Program-made: the position numbers and the translations under genes | Part shown: positions 2,744 through 49,595 of the stretch, in pieces | Position numbering within the stretch: the stretch's first letter is position 1 | How the letters are laid out: each line of letters begins with the position of its first letter | IMG/VR virus record: IMGVR_UViG_3300031772_000049 | Location: 1 to 52,439 of that record | Source: a virus | Lineage: Duplodnaviria; Caudoviricetes | Reading direction: 5' to 3' (one strand) | Length of the DNA stretch: 52,439 bases | Notes under the pieces: model-generated | Seen by the model: only the letters and a program-made list of their open reading frames with translations | The model's database searches: none | Told to the model about the DNA's origin: nothing

Positions 2744-3130
2744 ATGATCATATTAAAAAGCCGAATCAAGAAATTTATTGACAAGGTGCGGGCACGGGAA
2801 CGAGCTTTAATCGGTACCGATTGGCAGCGTAAAATTGATACGGCGTTATATACTCAAAAAGAATTATTCGAGATTCTACTCCATGAAAAAAATCTGGAAA
2901 TAGAAACATTGAACACAATCATCGATCAAAATAAAAAATTCATTGAGGACGCATATGCCAGGGAAGCGAACTCAAAAAAAATATTATTGCGGGCCCGCGA
3001 AATCGCCGCATGTATCGATTTTGAATTTAAAAGATATCTTGAAAACTCAGCGCGTGCCATGACTCAATTTGATAAAATAAGAAATGATACGGATATATTT
3101 ACAAAAAAACTTTTAAGTGAAAAATTATGA
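2744..3130 (+). CDS. Hypothetical coiled-coil protein
   Basis: ORF track 2666-3130; start moved to the ATG after the promoter. Confidence 0.5.
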   Translation: MIILKSRIKKFIDKVRARERALIGTDWQRKIDTALYTQKELFEILLHEKNLEIETLNTIIDQNKKFIEDAYAREANSKKILLRAREIAACIDFEFKRYLENSARAMTQFDKIRNDTDIFTKKLLSEKL

Positions 3131-3645
3131 ATGAGACATTTAAAGATTATATAAAGAAGGTTGATCTGGTCGAGTGGAAAAAATTAAAGCCTTTTCAACC
3201 GGACGATTTTAAAAAGATTACAAAAGACCAATTGAATAAATTGAAAACCAGTTTATTAAGAAACGGATTAAAAAGTCCGTTTCTTGTCTGGCAAGATGGG
3301 AAGACTTTATGGTGTCTTGATGGACATACGAGAATACCTGTACTGAAATTACTTGAGGACGAGGGAGTTGATGTTCCTGAGAAATTGTCGGCGGTGTTTG
3401 TAGATTGCAAGACAAAGCAGGACGCCAAGAAAGCAATTTTGATTTATAATTCTCACTATGCAAGTATCCAGCAAGAGCCGCTATTTGATTTTATTCAGGA
3501 CTTGAATTTTGATGAAGTGCGGTGCGAAATTGACATTCCGAATGTATACCTCGATGCACATTTCGAATTTAAAAATACTGAAAAGGAAATATCGGGTGAT
3601 CTTGATACTAATGTTGAATGCCCGAAATGCGGGTACAAATGGTAA
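3127..3645 (+). CDS. ParB/Srx-like N-terminal domain protein with C-terminal CPKCG knuckle
   Basis: LDGHTR motif; common partner upstream of phage methyltransferases and terS. Confidence 0.7.
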   Translation: MNETFKDYIKKVDLVEWKKLKPFQPDDFKKITKDQLNKLKTSLLRNGLKSPFLVWQDGKTLWCLDGHTRIPVLKLLEDEGVDVPEKLSAVFVDCKTKQDAKKAILIYNSHYASIQQEPLFDFIQDLNFDEVRCEIDIPNVYLDAHFEFKNTEKEISGDLDTNVECPKCGYKW

Positions 3646-4637
3646 GCGAGTATACAGTAATTTCTACTTTTGCGGGATGCGGGGGAAGCTCTCTAGGTTA
3701 TAAATGGGCAGGGTATAAGGAAGTGCTTGCGGTTGAATGGGATTCTAATGCAGTAGAAACGTTTAAGTTGAATTTTCCTGAAGTTCCCATATATCATGAT
3801 GATATTAGAAATTTGTCTGGAAAAATTTGTTTAGAACTATCTAGTATGAATAAGGGGGAATTAGATATTTTTGATGGGTCTCCGCCGTGTCAAGGGTTTT
3901 CTCTTTCTAGAGGGAAAAGAAATGTATGTGACCCGCGAAATGATTTATTTCTTGAGTATGTTCGATTGATAAAAGAGTTGGGCCCAAAAATTTTTATTAT
4001 GGAAAATGTTTCAGGAATGATAAAAGGTAAAATGAAGGGAAAGTATCTTGAGATATGGGAAAATTTAATGCAATTAAATTATAATGTAAAATCAAAACTT
4101 ATGAATGCAATGTGGTATGACGTTCCCCAATCAAGAGAACGTATGTTTTTTATTGGCGTTCGAAAAGATTTAAATATCGTGCCATCATTTCCGCGACCTC
4201 TTGAGAAAGTGATTACTGTAAAAGAAGCCTTATTAAACGTTGAAGTAGGATTGGTACCAGAGTTTAATGATAAGTATTCTCTCTATTATGATAAAATTAA
4301 ATATTCTAAGTCGGCCCAAAGTATTATAGGAAAAGGTTTTAATAATTGTAAAAAAGTTCATCCAGAAAAGCCGAGTCCTACACTTTTAAAATTTCAGACA
4401 GGGAGGGGGTTCGCAACAACCGTTCATTATTCCGAGAAACGAGCATTATCAATAAATGAGGCTAAAAGGTTGTCAAGTTTTCCGGATGATTTTAAGTTTA
4501 TTGGGGGGTATTCCGAGCAATGGGCGCGAATAGGTAATTCAGTTATGCCTAAAATGATGTATCATATTGCTAAACATGTAAAAGAAAATATATTGGATTG
4601 TTATTATGCAACAGGTGGGAAGCCTGTAAAATTATAA
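3639..4637 (+). CDS. dcm: DNA (cytosine-5) methyltransferase
   Basis: FAGCGG, GSPPCQGFS, ENV, QSRER and IGNSV motifs. Confidence 0.95.
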   Translation: MVSEYTVISTFAGCGGSSLGYKWAGYKEVLAVEWDSNAVETFKLNFPEVPIYHDDIRNLSGKICLELSSMNKGELDIFDGSPPCQGFSLSRGKRNVCDPRNDLFLEYVRLIKELGPKIFIMENVSGMIKGKMKGKYLEIWENLMQLNYNVKSKLMNAMWYDVPQSRERMFFIGVRKDLNIVPSFPRPLEKVITVKEALLNVEVGLVPEFNDKYSLYYDKIKYSKSAQSIIGKGFNNCKKVHPEKPSPTLLKFQTGRGFATTVHYSEKRALSINEAKRLSSFPDDFKFIGGYSEQWARIGNSVMPKMMYHIAKHVKENILDCYYATGGKPVKL

Positions 4638-4654
4638 AAATCGGGTATTTCGCG

Positions 4655-5044
4655 ATGGCTGGACAAGGCATAGGTAAACGAGGTTATACAAAGCAAGAGG
4701 TCCTTAAAGCAATTAAGGGGACGTCTGGTATCATCACGAATATTGCAGCCACTTTAAAATGTGATTGGAATACTGCGGACAAGTATATTAAAATGTGGCC
4801 TGAGACTTTGCAAGCATATAGGGATGAAAAAGAAAAAATAGGGGATTTATGCGAGTCTAAATTATACCGGGCTATTCAAGCGGATAATATTGATGCGGCG
4901 AAATGGTATCTTTCTAAAAAACATAAAGAGCGTGGATACGGTGATAAAATAGAACTGACCGGGAAGATTGAACACTCAATTGAAACCGAGGAGCTTTTAA
5001 AATTTGCAGACCAATTCAAGAAATCTATCGATGAAAAAGGATAG
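4655..5044 (+). CDS. terS: Terminase small subunit
   Basis: N-terminal HTH, AAKWYL..K.RGY motif, directly upstream of terL. Confidence 0.75.
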   Translation: MAGQGIGKRGYTKQEVLKAIKGTSGIITNIAATLKCDWNTADKYIKMWPETLQAYRDEKEKIGDLCESKLYRAIQADNIDAAKWYLSKKHKERGYGDKIELTGKIEHSIETEELLKFADQFKKSIDEKG

Positions 5045-5058
5045 ATTTTTAAAATTAT

Positions 5059-5133
5059 TAGCCGTTCTCGCGGCTACATGGTGAGGGCGACAACAATGCC
5101 AGCTACTCACCAAACACTAAAATGTGACGAGAG
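5059..5133 (+). ncRNA. Dispersed tracr/omega-RNA-like scaffold fused to CRISPR-repeat 3' end (copy C)
   Basis: TAGCCG-TTCTCG-CGGCTA hairpin, GGTGAG...CTCACC stem, ends ATGTGACGAGAG (repeat end is ATGTGATGAGAG); homologous to 48375-48316 on the minus strand. Confidence 0.75.
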
Positions 5134-6430
5134 AAAAAGAAACCTAACGACTGACGATTTAAAGTTGTACATGCAATATCCCCATGTGCTCGGGCACGTC
5201 CTTGGCTATCCTGATTTAATCCCTCTACATTCTGAATGGATTGTCAATGCCTGGCTGAATAATAAATCATTTGCCATGCAGGCACATCGTAACTCATACA
5301 AAACTACCGCTATCATCGTGGTGGGCTGCGTATGGTATCTTTTGTTTTACGACCCTAATGCAACCATTTTAATTATTCGTAAGGCGGAGCAGGATGCACA
5401 GAAAATCGTGCAGACAATCCAATCTCATTTCTTAAACCCGGTCATTCAATTTTTGGGAAAACTTTTATATAAATGCGATACCCTACAATCAGAGCAGTGG
5501 TCAAGATCAAGTTTGAGACTATCAATTAAGACCACGCCGAGCCCTGAAGGTAATGTTGAGGCCAAGGGCACGTCATCGGCGGTGGTAGGGTCTCACTATG
5601 ACTTTATATTCCCTGATGACATTATTACCATACGGGACAGGGTATCAAAAGCTGAACGTGACTGGACAAAACTTTTTGTCAATGAGCTTTCAAACATCAA
5701 GAAAGAGGGCGGGAAAATTTTCTTTTCCGGTACCCCTTGGCATCCTGATGACGCGTGGAAAAATATCCCTGAGCCGAAAAAATATCCTATCGGGTCGGTC
5801 GATATCCCAGGATTTACGCAAGATGTTATTCAAAATAAAATAAAGGAATTAAAGCAAAGTAATTCCGTGTCCCTTTTTTCGGCGAACTATGAGCTCTCCC
5901 ATATTGCTGACATCGACCGGCTTTTTGGCGAACCTGATTACGCGCCATGGCCTGAAAGCTCATCGCAGATTATTGCATATCTGGACCCGGCGTATTCAGG
6001 GGACAATCACACGGCATTGGCTATGGGAGCCCGTCTGGATGCTTCTATTGTCGTATGCGGGTGGGTGTGGCGGCAAGACGTGACAGAGTTATATGATGTA
6101 ATAGTCAATATTTTAAATGATTACAAGTGCGGGACATTGTACGTGGAAACAAATGCCGATAAAGGATTGTCCGTTCGGGATTTTCAAAAGAAATATCCGT
6201 CAGTCATTGGTAGAAATGAGTCTCAAAATAAACACATAAAAATAGTTTCATTTGTAAAAAATAACTGGACAAAAATAAAATTTTCTGACACTATCAATAA
6301 TGATTTTTTAATGCAAGTTATGGAGTACCAAGAAGGACAAGAACCTGACGACGGGGTCGACGCCCTTTCTGGACTTTGCCGGGAAATGGGATTGTCTGGG
6401 TCCACCGAATTAAGAATGAGGTATATATAA
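5096..6430 (+). CDS. terL: Terminase large subunit
   Basis: AHRNSYKT Walker A variant, IFPDD Walker B, GTPWH, nuclease DPA...PDDGVDA; start uncertain (5078 or 5096, the latter has GGTGAGGG 8 nt upstream). Confidence 0.9.
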   Translation: MPATHQTLKCDERKRNLTTDDLKLYMQYPHVLGHVLGYPDLIPLHSEWIVNAWLNNKSFAMQAHRNSYKTTAIIVVGCVWYLLFYDPNATILIIRKAEQDAQKIVQTIQSHFLNPVIQFLGKLLYKCDTLQSEQWSRSSLRLSIKTTPSPEGNVEAKGTSSAVVGSHYDFIFPDDIITIRDRVSKAERDWTKLFVNELSNIKKEGGKIFFSGTPWHPDDAWKNIPEPKKYPIGSVDIPGFTQDVIQNKIKELKQSNSVSLFSANYELSHIADIDRLFGEPDYAPWPESSSQIIAYLDPAYSGDNHTALAMGARLDASIVVCGWVWRQDVTELYDVIVNILNDYKCGTLYVETNADKGLSVRDFQKKYPSVIGRNESQNKHIKIVSFVKNNWTKIKFSDTINNDFLMQVMEYQEGQEPDDGVDALSGLCREMGLSGSTELRMRYI

Positions 6431-6550
6431 AATGACGGTCGAATCGCTCGTAAAGATTGAAAACGAAATAAAAAATAAATATGATTTCAATACCCTCCGA
6501 AATAAAATACGACTGATTAAACTTGAGGAAAGGGCAGAGGTGCTGGCGAC

Positions 6551-6880
6551 ATGGACAATAATGGAAATGGAAACTTTGAGCGATTGCTTATGATACAAGA
6601 AAAAACGATCATGTCATGCGAGAAAATGGTGCATGGCATGGATATGTTAACTGTCGAAATGAAAGATCAAAGGGCTACCCTGAACGCCCGTCCGTGCGTG
6701 CTCGATACCGAAGAAATGACTCTTGTAAAAAATGACCTGGTCGACCTTAAAGATTTATTACAAAATAAAATTGATATAGTTGATGGAATACAACGATGGT
6801 TGAAACTCTGGACAGTTATCCTGACCTTGATCATTACCGGAGTTGGCCTGGCGTCGTTGTTTATTCGATTAAATAATTAG
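6551..6880 (+). CDS. Hypothetical protein with C-terminal transmembrane helix
   Basis: Coiled-coil followed by hydrophobic LWTVILTLIITGVGLASLFI. Confidence 0.5.
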   Translation: MDNNGNGNFERLLMIQEKTIMSCEKMVHGMDMLTVEMKDQRATLNARPCVLDTEEMTLVKNDLVDLKDLLQNKIDIVDGIQRWLKLWTVILTLIITGVGLASLFIRLNN

Positions 6881-6891
6881 GAGACATAATC

Positions 6892-7272
6892 ATGGCATTT
6901 ACTGAAAGTTTTTTTGGCCCGCATAACTGGCAGCACTTCAATTTTTACAAGACCGCTCCTGGAAGCGTATTATCATTTATAACCGAATCAATAAATATCT
7001 CCGCACCATGGAAGCTTCAAGAGCTTAGACTTCATTTTTCTACGGCCATGGGTTCGGTAAAATATCTTAATATCCGTGTGAGCTCGGTTGGCGGGTCTGC
7101 GCTGAATACAATCCTGCTCAGCCAGGACCTTAATGGCGTGCAGGACTTATACCTTCATTACAGCGATCCCATGTTATTTTTCAGCGATGATCAATTGGTT
7201 ATTACGACCAGCGTCATTTCCGTGGCGAACTGGTATGGGCTGCAAGTGATCGGATGGGCTGTTATAGACTAG
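6892..7272 (+). CDS. Hypothetical, probably a beta-sandwich virion protein
   Basis: Strong RBS AGGAGA; beta-rich composition. Confidence 0.5.
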   Translation: MAFTESFFGPHNWQHFNFYKTAPGSVLSFITESINISAPWKLQELRLHFSTAMGSVKYLNIRVSSVGGSALNTILLSQDLNGVQDLYLHYSDPMLFFSDDQLVITTSVISVANWYGLQVIGWAVID

Positions 7273-7282
7273 GAGATATGAA

Positions 7283-7720
7283 ATGTATCTTGTGATAAAT
7301 GGAATTGACCCGATACAAAAAATATTATCAGTAGTTGAAGCATCTTCAACAACCATCACATCCATATCTACCTCGACGTCAAGCGCGGATACTGTGGGGT
7401 CACATTCATACACTAACGTTGGTGGTGAGCAGACGGTGTATGAGTCCACGGTTGCAACTCGAAGGTTAATCCATGGTGTATGGATTGATTTGGTGAATAT
7501 GATAAAAGACGGCGTCATAAAACTATATTATAAAATAGACGGTACGAACTATCGCGAAATAAAATCATATACATTTACTGTGGCGACTGATTCCGACGGT
7601 GTATATATCGCACTAAGCCTAGGTGTAACAAATTCATGGAAGGTTACTTATACCGAGGGCGCGGATGAGGGTGCTGACCGTGCTATACCATATTCAGTAA
7701 TTTATGAGGTGAGGGAATAA
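7283..7720 (+). CDS. Hypothetical virion protein with Ser/Thr-rich linker
   Basis: RBS AGGAGA; ASSTTITSISTSTSSA segment. Confidence 0.5.
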   Translation: MYLVINGIDPIQKILSVVEASSTTITSISTSTSSADTVGSHSYTNVGGEQTVYESTVATRRLIHGVWIDLVNMIKDGVIKLYYKIDGTNYREIKSYTFTVATDSDGVYIALSLGVTNSWKVTYTEGADEGADRAIPYSVIYEVRE

Positions 7721-9162
7721 TGCCGGTACTGATTGAACAACCACCCACACCCACGGGGTTAAAATATCTTGGTACATGGAACGCGAGCTCGAATACCCCT
7801 GTTCTTGCGACTGGCGGTTCAGGTGGAAACATAAACGAGTTTTACGTGTGTAGTGTTGCAGATGCGTCATTCGCGGCGATCGATGGGATAACGTCGGCTA
7901 TCGTCGGTGACTGGATGCTGAATAACGGATCTGTGTGGCAGAAGGTGCCCTACACTGCACCGGCATCGCCTGACCCGCTTGCTAATACCTATCGCGTGTC
8001 ATCCACAGGTGGATCGTTTACAACTATACAGGCAGCCATTACTGCGATCAATTCCCTTGCTCATACTAATGGTGTGCGATTGGTTGTTGACGGCGGGATA
8101 TATACCATAGATGATACAATTATTATAAATTCAACCGTGAATTTAATGATCGAAGGAAGCGGGTATACTAGCACAATATTTAAAGCCGCAACCGGGCTTG
8201 AAAATAAACCAATGTTTGATATTCGATCTGCATGTAATTTTCTTCGCGTGGGGTTTGATGGGACGCTTGCGGGATGGGCGGCAACCACTGGCAGTTTTTT
8301 ATATTATAATACCACCGCACTTTTTAGCAGATTAAATGAGCTTGCTTTTGATACCGCACAAACAGGTATAAAAATAACAAAGGGAGTCGAAATTATTCTT
8401 ACAAACTTTATTTTTGATACGTGTACTACTGGTATATCAGTCAACACCACCGAGACACCAAAGTTGGATGTCGAGATAGGTGATTTTGTAGATTGCGCCA
8501 AGGGTATACATCTTATTAAGGCGGTGACAGGTGAGTTTATATTTATGGCACTTGTTTTTAAAAATCCTGCCCTTGGCGTTGGCATTACCTATGTGGGAGC
8601 GGATGTCACGTATACTTTATTTGATATTATGAACTGTATTCATAATTTCGTGGGTACGTTTTTATCCGGGTTTGATTTTACTATTGCGCGGGACGCTGAT
8701 ATTTATTTAAAATCAAATATCGGTGAAGAGGATAAAAAAGCACACGCAAAAATAAATCTAACCGGGGCGAGCGCAACCCAAAATTTGACGAGCAATACCC
8801 CTACTAAGATCACATATACAAATACTGATTCATACGCTTGTAAATTTACAATCGCTAACAATAAAATGACATACCTACCTACTAATTCATCCGATGTAAA
8901 TATGTGGGTATCTATAGCGTGCCAGACGACGACTAAAAATTCAACATTTACATTTGGGATTGTAAAAAATAATGTCACTACAACTTATTATGGTACTCAA
9001 AGTGTTACTTTTGATACTGATAATAAAACTCAAAACATGGCGACGAATATATATTTAGACGACGTGGCAAAAAATGATTATTTTGAGATTTTTTGCACCG
9101 CCGTTGGTGCAAATGAAACGATACGAATTGTTGACGTAAACTGGTTAGCAATAGCAGTATAG
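7720..9162 (+). CDS. Fibre/spike-like protein with pectate-lyase-like beta-helix
   Basis: N-terminal YLGTWNAS...VGDW...WQKV module; FTTIQAAI...GGIY...IEGSG beta-helix entry motif. Confidence 0.6.
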   Translation: MPVLIEQPPTPTGLKYLGTWNASSNTPVLATGGSGGNINEFYVCSVADASFAAIDGITSAIVGDWMLNNGSVWQKVPYTAPASPDPLANTYRVSSTGGSFTTIQAAITAINSLAHTNGVRLVVDGGIYTIDDTIIINSTVNLMIEGSGYTSTIFKAATGLENKPMFDIRSACNFLRVGFDGTLAGWAATTGSFLYYNTTALFSRLNELAFDTAQTGIKITKGVEIILTNFIFDTCTTGISVNTTETPKLDVEIGDFVDCAKGIHLIKAVTGEFIFMALVFKNPALGVGITYVGADVTYTLFDIMNCIHNFVGTFLSGFDFTIARDADIYLKSNIGEEDKKAHAKINLTGASATQNLTSNTPTKITYTNTDSYACKFTIANNKMTYLPTNSSDVNMWVSIACQTTTKNSTFTFGIVKNNVTTTYYGTQSVTFDTDNKTQNMATNIYLDDVAKNDYFEIFCTAVGANETIRIVDVNWLAIAV

Positions 9163-9172
9163 GATTATACAA

Positions 9173-10453
9173 ATGTTTATATTTTCAAAACTATTTAAAA
9201 GACAAAAAGCCATTGGGACATCGGCGTTGATACTGCAAGGCCGCACCACTACGTCATGGCCAGAGCGCAATTATGAGAATTATGTCAAGGAATCATATCT
9301 TAAAAATATAATATCATTTCGATGTGTAGACATTATCGCCAAGTCTTGCGCATCTGTTCCATGGGTTGCGTATTTTGAAAATACATTGGGCGAGCGTCAA
9401 GAGGTTGCGGACGACGTGATTACACGTCTGTTAAAACGTCCAAACCCAGGGCAATCTTGGCTATCGTTGGTATACTCAATTATTTCTTATTTGCCAATAT
9501 CAGGTAATTCTTTCATCCTGGGCGTTGCAGCATTGTCAGGTAGTAATGTGGGCAGGGTCATGGAGCTTTATTCCCTGCGACCTGATACTATTACTATCCA
9601 GCGTAATCAGTCGGGCGACGTGGTAGAATATGAGCACCGCAGCGGGACAGACACAAAAGTATATCCAGTTGACCCGATTACCGGGCGTTGTCAGATTAAA
9701 CATATCAAACTTTTTAATCCTCTCGATGCGACATGGGGAACGTCCGTCACCGAACCCGCAGCGCGTGACATTGACCTGTCGAACAGTCAAGCGGACTGGA
9801 ATAAGGGGCTACTAGATAATCAAGCACGACCGGGGATGGTGCTATCAACCAAGGATAATTTATCCGATCAACAATTCGACCGATTGCGTAAACAATGTTA
9901 CGAGGAACGCGAAGGGGCGATGAACGCAGGCAAGACCTTAATCCTTGAGGGCGCGACCATTGCCAATTCATATGGGTACAACCCCATAGAGATGGATTTT
10001 ACTGAGGGCCAGCGCGAGACCGCACGCCGTATTTGTAGTGCGTACGGGGTGCCGCCTCAAATGATTGGTATCAAGGGTGATTCGACGTTCGCGAACTATG
10101 AGCAGGCCCGATTGTCTTTCTGGGAAGATACGGTCATTTTTTATCTTGAACTATTACAGCAAGAATTGAACCACTGGTTATTTAAAGATTCTGAAATATA
10201 TCTTGAGTATGATCTCAATGAGGTTCCCGTTTTTATTGAAAAGAAAATTGCGCGTCTTGAGAAAATTGATAAGATGTCTTTTTATACCACCAACGAAAAA
10301 CGCGAAGCCGCGAACCTTGAACCTGTCGAGGGTGGTGATTCTGTTTTGATATCGTCAACCCTTATACCTTTAAATTCCGATACTATGCTTGAAGATACGA
10401 GTGTTGAAAATGAAGAGGGTGAAAGTATAATTGATGCCATCGAGTTTGAATAA
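9173..10453 (+). CDS. HK97-family portal protein
   Basis: CVDIIAKS, LLKRPNP, GNSF, ICSAYGVPP.MIG, TTNEKR motifs. Confidence 0.95.
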   Translation: MFIFSKLFKRQKAIGTSALILQGRTTTSWPERNYENYVKESYLKNIISFRCVDIIAKSCASVPWVAYFENTLGERQEVADDVITRLLKRPNPGQSWLSLVYSIISYLPISGNSFILGVAALSGSNVGRVMELYSLRPDTITIQRNQSGDVVEYEHRSGTDTKVYPVDPITGRCQIKHIKLFNPLDATWGTSVTEPAARDIDLSNSQADWNKGLLDNQARPGMVLSTKDNLSDQQFDRLRKQCYEEREGAMNAGKTLILEGATIANSYGYNPIEMDFTEGQRETARRICSAYGVPPQMIGIKGDSTFANYEQARLSFWEDTVIFYLELLQQELNHWLFKDSEIYLEYDLNEVPVFIEKKIARLEKIDKMSFYTTNEKREAANLEPVEGGDSVLISSTLIPLNSDTMLEDTSVENEEGESIIDAIEFE

Positions 10454-10488
10454 AAATTATGAACGATACGGTTAAGAATTATATTTTG

Positions 10489-10577
10489 CAGCCGTTCTCA
10501 CGGCTGAAGGGTGAGGGTAGCGATTTACTGCTAAGCCACTCACCAGACCTCATGTCGATAGGCGAATAGGATGAGAG
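10489..10577 (+). ncRNA. Dispersed tracr/omega-RNA-like scaffold fused to CRISPR-repeat 3' end (copy B)
   Basis: 54/60 ungapped identity to 48375-48316 (minus strand); CAGCCG-TTCTCA-CGGCTG hairpin; ends GATGAGAG, identical to the repeat 3' end. Confidence 0.85.
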
Positions 10578-10581
10578 GAAG

Positions 10582-11430
10582 ATGATTAACCTTGTAACAA
10601 ATCAGGCCCGGCAACAAGAGCGTGCGGCGATCGACCGTCAAATGAAAATCATTGAACGCCAGACGGTGCGCAAGGTTGCCCTTGAATTACAACGTCAATA
10701 CCTGGCGGCTGCGCGTCAAGTTGAGCATGGGGAACTTGAAATATTTCACCCGGTTAATGACGGCATTGAAAATTTGCGCTCCATCCTAATGGAATTATAC
10801 AAGCGGGTCATTAGTGTGTTCGGGTCGCGGGTGTTTGAAGCCCTTGAAAAGTCGGCTATGGTATATAGCCACAAGGCTATTCAAGATGAGTTTCAAACGA
10901 TTATTGACAGATGGATTGTTGTTCATGCGGCTGAAGAGGTCGTGCTAATAACCGCGACCACAAAAAAGATTTTAAAGGCAATTATAAAAAAAGGCCTCGA
11001 TGACCATAAATCGTACCGGGATATAGCAAAGTCTATTAGCAAGCACGTGACTCCCTTGAATACTTCCAGCGTGATGAAACGTGCATGGCGCATCACCAGG
11101 ACAGAGTGCCATACGGTTGCAATCAAGAGCATGAATGAAGCGATGGAGACGACCAGGTTAAAATATATGCGACAATGGGTGTCCGCGAAAGACGAGCGCA
11201 CGCGCGGGAACGTGAAGCGTGGTAAGAAGAAAAAAAGTAAGTTTGATCACTTCCATAGATACCCTCGTGGCGCGGACATGGAGACGATCGAGAAAGATGG
11301 TATATATGTAGGGTCTGGCGAGCCCTTGAAATTTCCGGGTGATCCTGATGGAAGCGCGGGAAATATTATAAATTGTCGATGTGTTGAAGTGTTTGAGACT
11401 AGAAAAGCGGTGATACGGAGGACTGTATGA
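10582..11430 (+). CDS. Head morphogenesis protein (Mu gpF/SPP1 gp7 family)
   Basis: RITRTE, W....DERTR, FPGDP and INCRC motifs. Confidence 0.9.
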   Translation: MINLVTNQARQQERAAIDRQMKIIERQTVRKVALELQRQYLAAARQVEHGELEIFHPVNDGIENLRSILMELYKRVISVFGSRVFEALEKSAMVYSHKAIQDEFQTIIDRWIVVHAAEEVVLITATTKKILKAIIKKGLDDHKSYRDIAKSISKHVTPLNTSSVMKRAWRITRTECHTVAIKSMNEAMETTRLKYMRQWVSAKDERTRGNVKRGKKKKSKFDHFHRYPRGADMETIEKDGIYVGSGEPLKFPGDPDGSAGNIINCRCVEVFETRKAVIRRTV

Positions 11431-42164: not shown

Positions 42165-42656
42165 TCATTCGTATTTATCACAAATACCTAAAAAATTTAC
42201 ATTACTTTTTAATTCAACGCAAACGACAACATGCGGTAAATCAGAAAATACGTGACGGCAATTACCGCAACAATGCAGCTCAATTTCTGTATAATTAACT
42301 TCTTTTAGTTTTTCAATTTCAAACGACATATTTCCCTCCCCGCTCCTGAGGTTTGCGCCCACGAGGTCTGCGCCCTCGAGGTATGCGCCCTCGAGGTATG
42401 CGCCCTCGAGGTTTGCGCCCTCGAGGTTTGCGCCCTCGAGGTTTGCGCCCCCGAGGTCTGCGTCCCTGAGGTCTGCGTCCCTGAGGTTTGCGCCCACGAG
42501 GTCTGCGCCCACGAGGTCTGCGTCCCTGAGGTTTGCGCCCCTGAGGTCTGCGTCCCTGAGGTTTGCGCCCACGAGGTTTGCGCACTTACCCCCATCTATG
42601 TCTTTCAGCCACTTGTCATGCAAGTCCAGTATTGATTTTAGTTCTATGTCTGTCAT
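42165..42656 (-). CDS. Pentapeptide-repeat protein joined in frame to a Cys-rich domain
   Basis: A(N/D/Y)L.(G/D) repeats encoded by 15-bp tandem repeats at about 42345-42582; C-terminal CCGNC...C...C. Confidence 0.8.
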   Translation of the reverse strand: MTDIELKSILDLHDKWLKDIDGGKCANLVGANLRDADLRGANLRDADLVGADLVGANLRDADLRDADLGGANLEGANLEGANLEGAYLEGAYLEGADLVGANLRSGEGNMSFEIEKLKEVNYTEIELHCCGNCRHVFSDLPHVVVCVELKSNVNFLGICDKYE

Positions 42657-43075
42657 TTTTCTACCTCGACGCCGCACGGAGAACCATTGACAAATTCATA
42701 TTTTTCTAACAACTGATTAAAATTTGGAGAATAACAATTATCGTCAAAGTCTCTTATCAACGCTATCCCATCACCATTTTTGGTTTGTGCAATAGCTAGA
42801 ATATTGTATTCCTTTTTTGATTTTTTATTCCGAATCCATTTATAATATAAATTTTCTCTTTCCTCAAAAGTAAATGACCGCCATGATTTTTTGGGAATGA
42901 TATGCACCTCTCTTTCTTCAAAAAAAACTTTACCAAAAAATCCGTCCTCACCTTCAACCGGAATACACGCAAAATATTTTCCGCTTTTTTCTATAAATTT
43001 TCTTTGGTATCTTCCGACCTTAATATCAACACTTACAATATCACCCATTTTTAACTCTGTCATTTTACTCATCAC
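42653..43075 (-). CDS. Hypothetical phage protein
   Basis: ORF track; ends Y.F..GSPCGV. Confidence 0.55.
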   Translation of the reverse strand: MMSKMTELKMGDIVSVDIKVGRYQRKFIEKSGKYFACIPVEGEDGFFGKVFFEEREVHIIPKKSWRSFTFEERENLYYKWIRNKKSKKEYNILAIAQTKNGDGIALIRDFDDNCYSPNFNQLLEKYEFVNGSPCGVEVEK

Positions 43076-47871: not shown

Positions 47872-48234
47872 CTCTCATCACACGCGCCCGCGCGAGTTGC
47901 AGGACCATAAAAAGTAATATGGTACAATGCAATCATCTCTCATCACACGCGCCCGCGCGAGTTGCAGGCAAGCAATTATTCAAAAAGCAATTACACGTCA
48001 AACTCTCATCACATGCGCCCGCGCGAGTTGCAGGGTTATGTTTCGTCTGTCAAATATGGTTCCCTTCTCTCATCACATGCGCCCGCGCGAGTTGCAGGAA
48101 GTCCTCTGTTTTGCTTTTCTTGACGTGGTGTATTCTCTCATCACATGCGCCCGCGCGAGTTGCAGGGATAAAACCCCCATCCCTGCAAGCCTGATTAACA
48201 GCCTCTCATCACATGCGCCCGCGCGAGTTGCAGG
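47872..48234 (-). CRISPR. CRISPR array, six 32-bp repeats and five spacers of 32-36 bp
   Basis: Repeat (minus strand) CCTGCAACTCGCGCGGGCGC(A/G)TGTGATGAGAG at + positions 47872, 47937, 48003, 48067, 48135, 48203; spacers 33, 34, 32, 36, 36 bp. Confidence 0.97.
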
Positions 48235-48236
48235 TG

Positions 48237-48375
48237 CCTGCATGTAAACGCTGATTGATTGAGCTCATGCGCCCGCACTTCCGCTAACCTTACATTTCTC
48301 GTCTATTGGCGTGGTGTCTGGTGAGTGGCTTAGCGGTAACCCGTTGCCCTCACCCTCCAGCCGTGAGAACGGCTG
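48237..48375 (-). ncRNA. Putative tracrRNA/omega-RNA scaffold (copy A), overlapping the cas12f 3' end
   Basis: Loop TTCTCA complementary to repeat end TGAGAG; GGTGAG/CTCACC stem; 3' anti-repeat TTACATGCAGG pairs with repeat CCTGCA and GCATGTGA. Confidence 0.8.
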
Positions 48376-49569
48376 AGCATCAAATGATGCTATATTCAAA
48401 GCGGCATTGTAATCCGCATTGATTTCTAATCCGCAGGATTGACATACGAAATGCTGTTGATCAACCCTGTTTTCTTTCGCCCGATGACCGCATCCAGAAC
48501 ATGTCTGTGATGTATATCGGGGATTTATATATTCAATGTCGATACCCTGATTTTTTGCCTTATACTCAATCATTTTTTGTAATTGATAATATGTCCAGTT
48601 CCTGCGTAAAAATTTATTCTGAATATCATCATGTATACCCGTCAATTTTTCCATACGTATCATCCCGACATTATTAGCCACACAAAATTTTATGGTTTCC
48701 CTTGATAATAAATGGTTATAGTTTGTACGCACTTCATGCTCTTTGTTTTCAAACCTGTCCAGGGCTTTTAATTTTTTTGTCCGTCCGTGCCCGCTGGAAG
48801 TTAATTTTATATTTTTTTGTAATGATCTCTTTTTTTGAATGCTGACTTTACGGGTCATTTTTAATATGTCGTCCATGCCCCCCAGGAATAAACGTTTCGG
48901 GGTGTCTTTTATGGCGAGCGATAATAAATTAAATGAATTAGCGTTTGAGTCAATCCCGCATACAATATTTTTATTCGGGGACTTTGTTATTATTTCATGT
49001 GAATGAACAATGTATAAATACCAGAAGCCTTTTCTTTTTATTAATTTTGAATCATGCTGGTCATATGCCCCCGATAGTATGCCGTCAAGAATTACAGATA
49101 ATGACTTATCTTTATTTATGCCGATCATTTCAAACTTTGTTTTATTCATGGCCGATGGTTCTAAAAAATATCTACCATCAGTTTTATATATTTTTCGCCC
49201 CTGCTTTCGGCATGGAATTGAATCATCTTTCATTCGTGGTATAGAGCGCATATTTTTTAATATATCTTTTTTAAATTTTAAAAATTCATTAACCGCATCA
49301 ATCCGCGCGTGAGAAGCAAGAGTTTTTGTAGCAAATTCAGGATCAGTTTTAAAACTATCAATATACGAGGCATACGATAACGACCGGCCGTCTTCTTTTT
49401 TCACTGTTTTATTATCAATATTGTTCTGCATATATGCCACACACCGACGAATAGCAATATTGCGTTCTCGATTTAATTCGTTGCTCACGCACGCCATCCA
49501 GTACATGATTTTTTTCCAATCATCACCGCAAATGATAAGTTTTATTTTAGCTACTGCCCGTGTTTTCAT
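48265..49569 (-). CDS. cas12f: Cas12f1-like (TnpB-derived) miniature type V effector
   Basis: RuvC-I VCGID, GHGRTKKLK, NH..SR, RuvC-II MEKL, NWTYY.LQ..I.YKA...GI, P.YTSQ.CS.CG, C..CG, RuvC-III NADYNAA.NI; adjacent array. Confidence 0.9.
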   Translation of the reverse strand: MKTRAVAKIKLIICGDDWKKIMYWMACVSNELNRERNIAIRRCVAYMQNNIDNKTVKKEDGRSLSYASYIDSFKTDPEFATKTLASHARIDAVNEFLKFKKDILKNMRSIPRMKDDSIPCRKQGRKIYKTDGRYFLEPSAMNKTKFEMIGINKDKSLSVILDGILSGAYDQHDSKLIKRKGFWYLYIVHSHEIITKSPNKNIVCGIDSNANSFNLLSLAIKDTPKRLFLGGMDDILKMTRKVSIQKKRSLQKNIKLTSSGHGRTKKLKALDRFENKEHEVRTNYNHLLSRETIKFCVANNVGMIRMEKLTGIHDDIQNKFLRRNWTYYQLQKMIEYKAKNQGIDIEYINPRYTSQTCSGCGHRAKENRVDQQHFVCQSCGLEINADYNAALNIASFDAQPFSRLEGEGNGLPLSHSPDTTPIDEKCKVSGSAGA

Positions 49570-49595
49570 ATTATTTCATCAAACTCCGTTTTACG
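49563..49595. repeat. 33-bp direct repeat, copy 2 (DUF2800 gene end and cas12f start)
   Basis: Identical to 47838-47870. Confidence 0.95.

Follow-up and report, generated by a model that had tools for sequence, protein, structure and literature searches.

The phage record IMGVR_UViG_3300031772_000049 of IMG/VR (52,439 bp, analyzed over its whole length and called the window below) carries a gene for the RNA-guided nuclease Cas12f, and a two-hairpin RNA module occurs in it exactly three times: as copy A (48375-48316, minus strand), copy B (10489-10577), and copy C (5059-5133). Sequence comparison and fold prediction showed that copy C is an orphan, shortened version of the protein-binding core of the phage's own Cas12f guide RNA and that it runs into the start of terL, the large-terminase gene. 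Our best explanation, which we hold tentatively, is that copies B and C are solo guides resembling the omega-RNA of TnpB and that they would direct Cas12f to the alleles of co-infecting relatives that lack the element. It was rated best because of the single-guide anatomy of the copies, the intact nuclease, the essential genes that flank them, the uniqueness of the adjoining 20-mers, and a vacant allele whose break lies at the scaffold/guide junction. The estimated completeness of the record is 45%, and the window is thus only about 45% of the genome.

Three copies of a Cas12f guide-RNA module

An 18-nt motif spanning stem 1 matched the window three times, compared with 0.02 matches expected (48375-48358 on the minus strand for copy A, from 10489 for B, and from 5059 for C). 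A covariance model of stems 1 and 2, run over the window without filters, recovered only the same three copies (88.8, 86.8, and 73.2 bits), the next match reaching 10.4 bits. We also built a model (R3) on eight relatives from other genomes without any window sequence; it scored B at 36.1, A at 33.5, and C at 29.9 bits (E = 1.5e-6 for C) and the next window match at 9.0 bits, although the relatives had originally been found by a model seeded with the window copies.

The same module was found beside Cas12f homologues in 14 related loci, which come from diverse bacteria and one viral contig and were collected in two model rounds, the second refined with the hits of the first. It lay just downstream of the Cas12f homologue in 12 of the 14; in L196 (965-1049) and L217 (1559-1621), the scaffold and array were located upstream, and therefore the gene order of the system varies. 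We aligned these 14 sequences with copies A, B, and C. In this 17-sequence alignment, which was fitted to the model and thereby favors the structure, 98.3% of the cells of stems 1 and 2 formed standard pairs, and 10 of the 15 pairs changed on both sides. The covariation score was 0.56, compared with 0.17 in shuffled alignments (none of 500 was as high), and pairing fell to 33-41% when the partners were slid by one to three columns. The closing pair of stem 1 was CG in eight members, AU in four, UA in three, and GC in two; the GAG/CUC core pairs of stem 2 were invariant in all 17. By these comparisons of sequence and modeled fold, copy C is a member of the Cas12f1 (type V-F) guide-RNA scaffold family, of which it represents the 5' module.

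A search of Rfam with the three window loci gave no match at E values up to 1. An exact-pattern scan of IMG/VR for the scaffold returned 94 stretches, 80 of them listed, and none of those checked was genuine; in a similar scan of metagenome contigs, none of the 88 matches had the 3' arm of stem 2.

Sequence and predicted fold of copy C

Copy C and its flank are composed as follows.

5059-5076, plus strand: stem 1, TAGCCG / loop TTCTCG / CGGCTA, with a U-A closing pair, compared with C-G in A and B
5080-5111, plus strand: stem 2, with GGTGAGGG as its 5' arm (5080-5087) and the ATG at 5096-5098 in its apical loop
5122-5133, plus strand: 12 nt resembling the end of the CRISPR repeat, the last six of which, CGAGAG (5128-5133), form the putative pseudoknot strand
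5134-5155, plus strand: flank that would be equivalent to a guide, as judged from the starts of the array spacers; codons 20-26 of TerL counted from the ATG at 5078

The 12-nt end of copy C, ATGTGACGAGAG, was identical to the repeat end, ATGTGATGAGAG, at 11 of 12 positions, in agreement with a first-pass annotation of this DNA, and the repeat-end motif was confined to the six repeats and copy C (seven matches in the window, compared with 0.28 expected). The flank at 5134-5155 was unique in the window (one match at up to three mismatches). Copy C folded at -24.8 kcal/mol, compared with -14.9 +/- 3.0 for its shuffles (z = -3.3; one of 200 was as stable), and the stem-2 hairpin was predicted at -10.8 kcal/mol.

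Over a 60-column core, copies A and B were 90% identical, and copy C was 75% identical to either. The differences between C and A affected 5 of the 34 paired columns, all five keeping their pairs, and 12 of the 26 unpaired columns. They comprised the change of the stem-1 closing pair from C-G to U-A, a change of an inner stem-2 pair from G-C to A-U that depends on the alignment, and one G-U. All 17 modeled pairs of copy C thus remained standard pairs, and the invariant GAG/CUC core of stem 2 was kept together with its bulged A. The three motif copies confirmed the replacement of CAGCCG/CGGCTG by TAGCCG/CGGCTA in stem 1 that the first-pass annotation had described. Its second observation, a loop changed from TTCTCA to TTCTCG while the distant partner changed from TGAGAG to CGAGAG, proved equally correct: UUCUCG pairs with CGAGAG at six of six positions, one of them G-U, and the A to G change in the loop goes together with a U to C change in the strand of the repeat end, which converts an A-U pseudoknot pair into G-C. 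RNAfold favored a 7-bp stem 1, in which the same loop change would instead turn U-A into U-G. The history of the end strand of copy C is ambiguous because GACGAGAG also resembles GACGAGAA, an internal sequence of copy A.

Stem 2 of copy C is followed by merely a 16-nt linker before the pseudoknot strand, and no part pairs with the 5' portion of the repeat. The distal stems and the long repeat:anti-repeat duplex of a complete scaffold are absent; copy C also lies about 43 kb from cas12f, on the opposite strand and with no full repeat nearby, whereas copy A adjoins that gene. The first-pass annotation had regarded these 75 nt as a very small natural Cas12f scaffold. Membership of the scaffold family was upheld, but the claim of a working scaffold was not, as copy C has only stems 1 and 2, the linker, and the pseudoknot strand.

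Two other readings of the module were rejected. The Cas12f tail (QPFSRLEGEG) and an open reading frame (ORF) over copy B (...QPFSRLKGEG) are alike as peptides, but the corresponding frame in copy C opens with TAG; an intrinsic terminator had only a minus-strand match with a weak tail. Directly before copy C, the ORF that precedes terL closes with an AT-rich inverted repeat of 9 bp (AAATCTATC ... GATAGATTT), behind which stands TTTTAAAATTATT (5021-5048); this repeat may act as a weak terminator or processing hairpin.

Pairing between the stem-1 loop and the repeat end

We compared the 6-nt loop of stem 1 with the last 6 nt of the repeat in 13 loci, each with a scaffold as well as an array (L201 and L205, whose covered stretch contained no array, were excluded). 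The loop formed on average 5.08 of 6 pairs with the repeat end of its own locus, compared with 3.65 with that of another locus, and none of 20,000 permutations reached the observed total. Examples of this pairing are as follows.

Window: loop UUCUCA, repeat end UGAGAG, 6 pairs
L191: loop GUUGCA, repeat end UGCAAC, 6 Watson-Crick pairs
L195: loop GUUUCA, repeat end UGAAAC, 6 pairs
L196: loop AUUUAC, repeat end GUAAAU, 6 pairs
L221: loop ACUCG, repeat end CGAGU, 5 pairs
L203: loop GGCCCA, repeat end UGGGUC, 6 pairs, one register back

The weakest pairing was that of L098 and L223, with four pairs each. Since the stems covary and the stem-1 loop complements its own repeat end across loci, these comparative data support the loop:repeat-end pseudoknot as a real, selected feature of this Cas12f guide-RNA family. 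It is a feature of a known kind, since a repeat-end pseudoknot is familiar from the guides of Cas12 and TnpB; in AsCas12f, the repeat:anti-repeat element R:AR-2 is described as stacking coaxially on stem 1 (bioRxiv 10.1101/2023.07.03.547593). The earlier statement that the structure is under selection therefore holds for the guide-RNA family, by covariation and permutation, but may not hold for copy C in its present place, as its compensated pairs could stem from a different donor locus.

The start of terL lies inside copy C

Copy C separates the following genes.

4598-5044, plus strand: ORF of 148 aa upstream of terL, for which family searches gave no hit; because of this, its name terS reflects position only
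5096-6430 (or from 5078), plus strand: terL, large terminase (phrog_38, E = 2.8e-55, match beginning at residue 28)

The TerL of L101 (55% identity) starts at a Met aligned with window residue R19 (bases 5132-5134), and for Leptospira phage LE4 (41% identity) the start of TerL falls at about residue 21. TerL homologues thus begin at the 3' edge of copy C (5133), and therefore the scaffold appears to have displaced the native terL start. Because the conserved TDDLKLY precedes the next in-frame ATG (5171), translation of TerL must begin inside the scaffold. The gene calls differ in this respect, JGI starting terL at 5096 and ENA at 5078; the ATG at 5096 has GGTGAGGG 8 nt upstream, and the ATG at 5078 has no Shine-Dalgarno sequence. 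On these grounds, TerL most likely initiates from the ATG at 5096 with the stem-2 arm as its ribosome-binding site, and the scaffold would then encode the first 12 codons of terL. Copy C would thus have been exapted as a translation start, an arrangement not described before among the literature covered. The genes downstream of terL in L101 were not homologous to the window portal or Mu-F-like gene, and L101 is therefore informative on terL only. A search of 50,697 phage records with nucleotides 4000-7000 gave zero matches.

A TerL variant, P0180 (98% identical), keeps MPATHQTLKCDE and has RRK in place of RKR in the three codons right after the scaffold; this change, at 5132-5140 (TerL residues 19-21), falls in the part of the would-be guide or target nearest to the protospacer-adjacent motif (PAM).

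The coordinates and the fold agreed with the first-pass annotation in that the Shine-Dalgarno sequence at 5080-5087 is the 5' arm of stem 2 and the ATG at 5096 lies inside stem 2. Its suggestion that the terL ribosome-binding site is hidden was likewise reproduced in silico: in a 171-nt context, the modeled probability of being unpaired was 0.02 for the Shine-Dalgarno sequence and 0.63 for the AUG, which was mostly open. These features would suit cis-acting translational operators, an explanation that we consider unlikely, in which scaffolds over the ribosome-binding sites of terL and the Mu-F-like gene would throttle or time late translation, more so when Cas12f clamps stem 2 and the pseudoknot, and no DNA targeting would be needed. 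The Shine-Dalgarno sequence of copy C is a stem-2 arm with the ATG in its loop, an in-frame ATG that copy C alone has among the three copies. Copies B and C are both in sense orientation, 0-4 nt from the start region. The Shine-Dalgarno sequence of copy B, GAGAGGAAG (mean probability of being unpaired, 0.37), lies 4 nt before the ATG at 10582 and shares bases with the pseudoknot strand GAGAG. A natural single guide used for regulation also has a precedent in the long-form trans-activating CRISPR RNA (tracrRNA) described for Cas9 (bioRxiv 10.1101/2020.05.21.102756). Against such operators, copy B is dispensable in nature, as a B-free allele exists, and relatives manage with short or overlapping junctions; the hiding of a ribosome-binding site needs neither an exact fusion to a repeat end nor a conserved pseudoknot, and the benefit of coupling packaging genes to Cas12f levels is not evident. 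Translational operation is compatible with, and not exclusive of, the proposal that B and C are solo guides.

The Cas12f gene, the array, and copy A

The plus strand of the window carries the packaging and head module, and the minus strand carries the replication module, which includes cas12f. The cas12f cassette contains the following features.

48265-49569, minus strand: cas12f, 434 aa (Pfam Cas12f1-like_TNB, E = 4.5e-26)
48316-48375, minus strand: copy A, the 5' module of the tracrRNA, overlapping the last codons of cas12f
47872-48233, minus strand: CRISPR array of six repeats and five spacers of 33-37 nt, with a terminal unit running into phage sequence
47838-47870 (right copy) and 49563-49595 (left copy): perfect direct repeat of 33 nt, the copies being 1,725 nt apart and bracketing the whole cassette of cas12f, tracrRNA, and array

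The gene is flanked by a PD-(D/E)XK/DUF2800 exonuclease gene on one side and a family-A DNA polymerase gene on the other. In an alignment of the window protein with 14 homologues, the RuvC residues D207, E307, and D386 and four zinc-finger cysteines occupied invariant columns, and Cas12f therefore looks catalytically intact and active by its sequence. A search of the PDB showed that the closest solved structures are 8HR5 (E = 6e-46), reported to be CnCas12f1 (PMC13186708), and AsCas12f (about 1e-43).

The array adjoins the 3' side of cas12f, and its repeat reads CTGCAACTCGCGCGGGCGC[A/G]TGTGATGAGAG. The start of copy A is located four codons past the last RuvC motif, and therefore the scaffold overlaps a dispensable tail of the Cas12f reading frame. 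The best candidate pairing of copy A with the 5' part of the repeat was a predicted interrupted duplex of -26 kcal/mol near 48272-48236. At 48262-48300 (minus strand), the internal GACGAGAA of copy A can make five pairs with its own stem-1 loop, and the end of the cas12f ORF holds GTGCGGGCGCATGAG, a degenerate same-sense copy of the repeat core.

The 33-nt direct repeat is made up of the final 26 nt of the exonuclease gene plus ATGAAAA, and ...GTACCG precedes its left copy; because the repeat ends in ATGAAAA, cas12f and polA share this start. Behind the last CRISPR repeat comes a spacer-length stretch of phage-native sequence, and this sixth, terminal unit was the only unit of the array that matched elsewhere in the window, at the left 33-nt copy.

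Two cultured phages, Alicyclobacillus phage MMB025 (L277) and Bacillus phage Mgbh1 (L278), have Cas12f-like genes annotated as transposase in their replication modules, and in MMB025 this gene has an annotated CRISPR and an exonuclease gene as neighbors; neither record gave a match to the scaffold model. Elsewhere on the minus strand of the window, a 15-nt unit is arrayed in tandem under the ORF 42165-42677, with at least 14 overlapping register copies (42300-42612).

Copy B and an allele that lacks it

Copy B is located between the portal gene and a head-morphogenesis gene.

9173-10453, plus strand: portal gene (Pfam Phage_portal, E = 1.4e-68)
10448-10577, plus strand: copy B stretch of 130 nt, with the 89-nt scaffold at 10489-10577, absent from a natural variant
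10582-11430, plus strand: Mu-F-like head-morphogenesis gene, starting right after copy B

After stem 2, copy B keeps about 25 nt that can be aligned with copy A and then has GATGAGAG; it lacks the parts that pair with the 5' portion of the repeat. Copy B ends in GATGAGAG|GAAGATG, leading to the Mu-F-like start at 10582, and copy C ends in GACGAGAG|AAAAAG; the spacers of the array begin at the same point. A scaffold leading straight into a would-be guide is also the layout of a TnpB omega-RNA or of an engineered single guide. The 20-mers of B and C in the position of a guide were each unique in the window.

Thirteen sediment-metagenome runs cover parts of 4400-11400, and four of them (X2-X5, contigs only) were compared with the window. 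One X2 contig (depth 4.74) joined position 10447 to 10578, skipping the 130 nt that comprise copy B and 41 nt upstream. Three letters at the joint fit either side, and GAA is present at both edges. The right edge of the B-free break is the last G of GATGAGAG, so that 10577|10578 is the scaffold/guide junction. Neighboring X2 contigs ended at 10444 and began at 10578, with about 95.5% identity to the window, and an X4 contig ran through copy B with 13 differences in 371 nt. The flanks of the insert were about 95-96% identical to the window. If the X2 joint is direct, by our own reading, the sequence would be ...GAGTTT GAA GATGATTAAC, the portal protein would end in EFEDD, and its TAA would overlap the Mu-F-like ATG (ATGATTAA), an overlap that would be typical of a native junction. 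GAA would then be duplicated at the edges of the insert, and GTTT would precede the guide match in the putative vacant site. A search for the portal yielded no close variant whose C-terminus differs, and all three cluster members end in IEFE. Copy C occurred in X4, with 9 differences in 297 nt, and also in a strain of X5 that was about 12% diverged; because of this and of the polymorphism of B, copy C looks older and fixed and copy B recent.

The sequence at 10452-10484, left of copy B, resembles 3120-3152 at the start of the ORF 3127-3645 (ParB-like by eye), with 27 of 33 positions identical and a local score of 21, compared with at best 18 in 20 shuffles. Most of the differences are synonymous or conservative (MNDTVKNYI and MNETFKDYI). 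Together with copy B, this 33-nt stretch makes a 36-codon ORF (10459-10569) that continues in frame into the Cas12f-tail-like QPFSRLKGEG. The 3' end of the portal gene (10404-10431) contains a strong sigma-70-like match (TTGAAA, 16 nt, TATAAT; 11 of 12), 58 nt upstream of copy B.

The exact edge of copy B raises the possibility of recombination relics, which we regard as rather unlikely. A Cas12f array of a host or another phage, with spacers against these gene starts, would have recombined with the protospacer and removed its PAM, allowing escape; the insert would then have been trimmed and would now be inert save for the ribosome-binding site and start codon. Recombination of this kind accounts for a right edge that falls exactly on the repeat/spacer junction and for the perfect, spacer-length duplication of 33 nt around the cassette, whose right copy follows the last repeat. 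Varble and colleagues reportedly described phage-CRISPR spacer recombination in staphylococci in 2019. Since copy C is 75% identical to A in the core and copy B is 90% identical, C could also have come from a different donor with a matching loop and repeat end. However, B and C are not repeat-spacer units but a tracrRNA core with 8-12 nt of repeat end, which would need a similar extra deletion in two independent events. The substitutions of copy C are, moreover, concentrated in unpaired columns, with all paired changes compensated, a pattern unlike decay, though copy C also occurs in the strain about 12% diverged.

A proposed model for solo guides

If copies B and C are solo guides, late transcripts reading through them would be bound by the phage Cas12f and trimmed to ribonucleoproteins whose guide would be the initial ~20 nt of either terL or the Mu-F-like gene. 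Cleavage of the phage's own loci would be avoided because the repeat end sits where the PAM would be, as in the array. In an element-free relative, the same 20 nt would adjoin native upstream sequence (GTTT at the putative B-free junction) and would be cut; the cut allele would be lost or else repaired from the element-bearing genome, which would copy the element and result in TnpB-like homing or in the exclusion of competitors. We infer read-through transcription, the binding of Cas12f to so short a core, trimming, PAM compatibility, cleavage, and conversion. The guide RNAs of TnpB are reported to cleave vacant sites and to drive transposon retention (PMC10055086, PMC10690162), and phage homing nucleases are described as biasing inheritance by a comparable logic (PMC11620839).

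Several points weigh against solo guides. Copies B and C are without the tracrRNA parts after stem 2 that pair with the repeat; stem 4 is described as contacting the protein in AsCas12f, where truncation beyond the distal repeat:anti-repeat duplex is said to reduce or abolish cleavage (bioRxiv 10.1101/2023.07.03.547593), and the Cas12f guide scaffolds described in the sources cited are 129-171 nt long (bioRxiv 10.1101/2023.07.03.547593, PMC13186708). Homing would account for the spread of an element at a given site but not for its arrival at two sites, and a Y1 transposase (PF01797) was not found in the window, which covers only about 45% of the genome. The compensated pairs of copy C could predate its insertion. 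Letters within the X2 joint are unread, and its shorter side is only 30 nt; runs X2-X5 showed no joint at copy C and no C-free allele, and a 24-mer of its guide region had no match in IMG/VR. As for the array, the five true spacers had zero matches elsewhere in the window, the array region gave nothing significant against the phage collection (best E = 1), and spacer 1, the only spacer scanned against IMG/VR (as a 22-mer), had no match there. Among the runs listed for the region, none is an RNA run. We also searched for orphan copies in five bacterial genomes, scoring 150 first-look candidates per genome, and found only cas12f-linked copies and one 25-bit match of 35 nt; five viral records (four with related Cas12f genes and, as the fifth, the TerL relative G007) held no orphans, only the copy of L098. 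The arrangement is therefore so far peculiar to this phage lineage.

A further possibility, which we consider doubtful, is that B and C are protein-less selfish guide-RNA genes of 75-130 nt, that is, minimal omega-RNA-like drives that borrow Cas12f in trans and use the start of a gene as guide. Element-free alleles would be cut and converted, the element would spread with the linked terminase and head genes, and its carrier would exclude competitors.

It is highly improbable, in contrast, that B and C are RNA decoys resembling anti-CRISPRs, with abundant late transcripts drawing off a related Cas12f, encoded by the host or a rival element, into complexes unable to find a PAM-flanked target. 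Viral single repeat units that mimic CRISPR RNA are reported to inhibit Cas proteins (PMC11656645), and copies B and C keep the parts described as contacting the protein in AsCas12f (stem 2 and the helix of stem-1 loop and repeat end) without the rest. Decoys are disfavored because the phage itself carries a cognate cas12f gene and array, which they would poison; moreover, neither an exact position at gene starts nor an end where a guide begins would be required of a decoy.

Comparison with known systems

A phage-borne Cas12f system, the scaffold family, and the pseudoknot are already known. The new elements are orphan, naturally fused Cas12f scaffolds of 75-89 nt at the first codons of essential late genes, one of them polymorphic with an exact scaffold/guide edge; the literature, as judged by titles and abstracts, contained no description of orphan Cas12f scaffolds at phage gene starts. 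If active, they would be the first natural CRISPR-Cas12f scaffold in the fixed-guide, flank-reading mode of the TnpB ancestor while the same nuclease serves an array, a living intermediate for the transition from TnpB to Cas12 with the single-guide and array modes of one scaffold in one genome. Where phages compete, they would also play the part of homing endonucleases, with RNA as the guide, and copy C would point to the smallest Cas12f-binding guide core, about 75 nt, a matter of practical interest in the design of compact editors. If inert, they still document how CRISPR parts were inserted in essential phage operons and later came to serve as a translation start.

The closest resemblance is to the guide RNAs of the AsCas12f/CnCas12f1 clade of Cas12f1. 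The protein is closest to CnCas12f1 (8HR5, slightly higher) and AsCas12f, the module occupies the tracrRNA 5' end, and the repeat end pairs with the stem-1 loop; in AsCas12f, the RuvC domain is described as gripping stem 2 (bioRxiv 10.1101/2023.07.03.547593). Unlike those guide RNAs, copies B and C are located away from cas12f and the array, lack stems 3-4 and the long repeat:anti-repeat duplex, measure 89 and 75 nt as against the 129-171 nt described, and are naturally fused to a putative guide; the scaffold of copy A differs from those described in overlapping the end of the cas12f reading frame.

As in the TnpB omega-RNA of IS200/IS605 elements, a single RNA scaffold runs into a guide of flanking DNA, and the B-free break is at that junction (the edge of C being judged from the starts of TerL homologues). 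The omega-RNA is described as forming a pseudoknot, as here, in which a 5' loop pairs with the nucleotides immediately before the guide (PMC10097598); copy A overlaps the 3' end of the nuclease gene, and a vacant site would join an upstream motif to the guide match, as reported for TnpB. The window differs in having no TnpA and no recognizable transposon ends, and its nuclease has a six-repeat array; the solo units B and C carry no gene, and vacant-site cleavage is a proposal only.

Virus-borne CRISPR mini-arrays and single repeat units are likewise minimal CRISPR RNA parts in viral genomes and are reported to act against relatives or as decoys (PMC11656645). Those described are repeats with or without a spacer that use host Cas proteins; here a tracrRNA core with a repeat end is combined with a phage-encoded Cas12f, the units lie inside essential operons, and the guide would be the phage's own gene. 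Single repeat units are defined by a solitary full repeat that matches a host array, and only 8-12 nt of repeat are present in copies B and C. The long-form tracrRNA of Cas9 is also a natural fusion of scaffold and guide, described as sending the effector to a fixed site (bioRxiv 10.1101/2020.05.21.102756); that RNA belongs to a type II system, lies in the cas locus, and is reported to repress the cas promoter through partial complementarity, whereas the system here is type V. Finally, the proposed outcome, in which a competitor's allele of an essential gene would be cut and then converted or excluded, resembles that described for phage homing endonucleases (PMC11620839). Such endonucleases are protein-guided, and their genes lie at the homing site itself, whereas here an RNA would provide the recognition and the nuclease gene is 43 kb distant.

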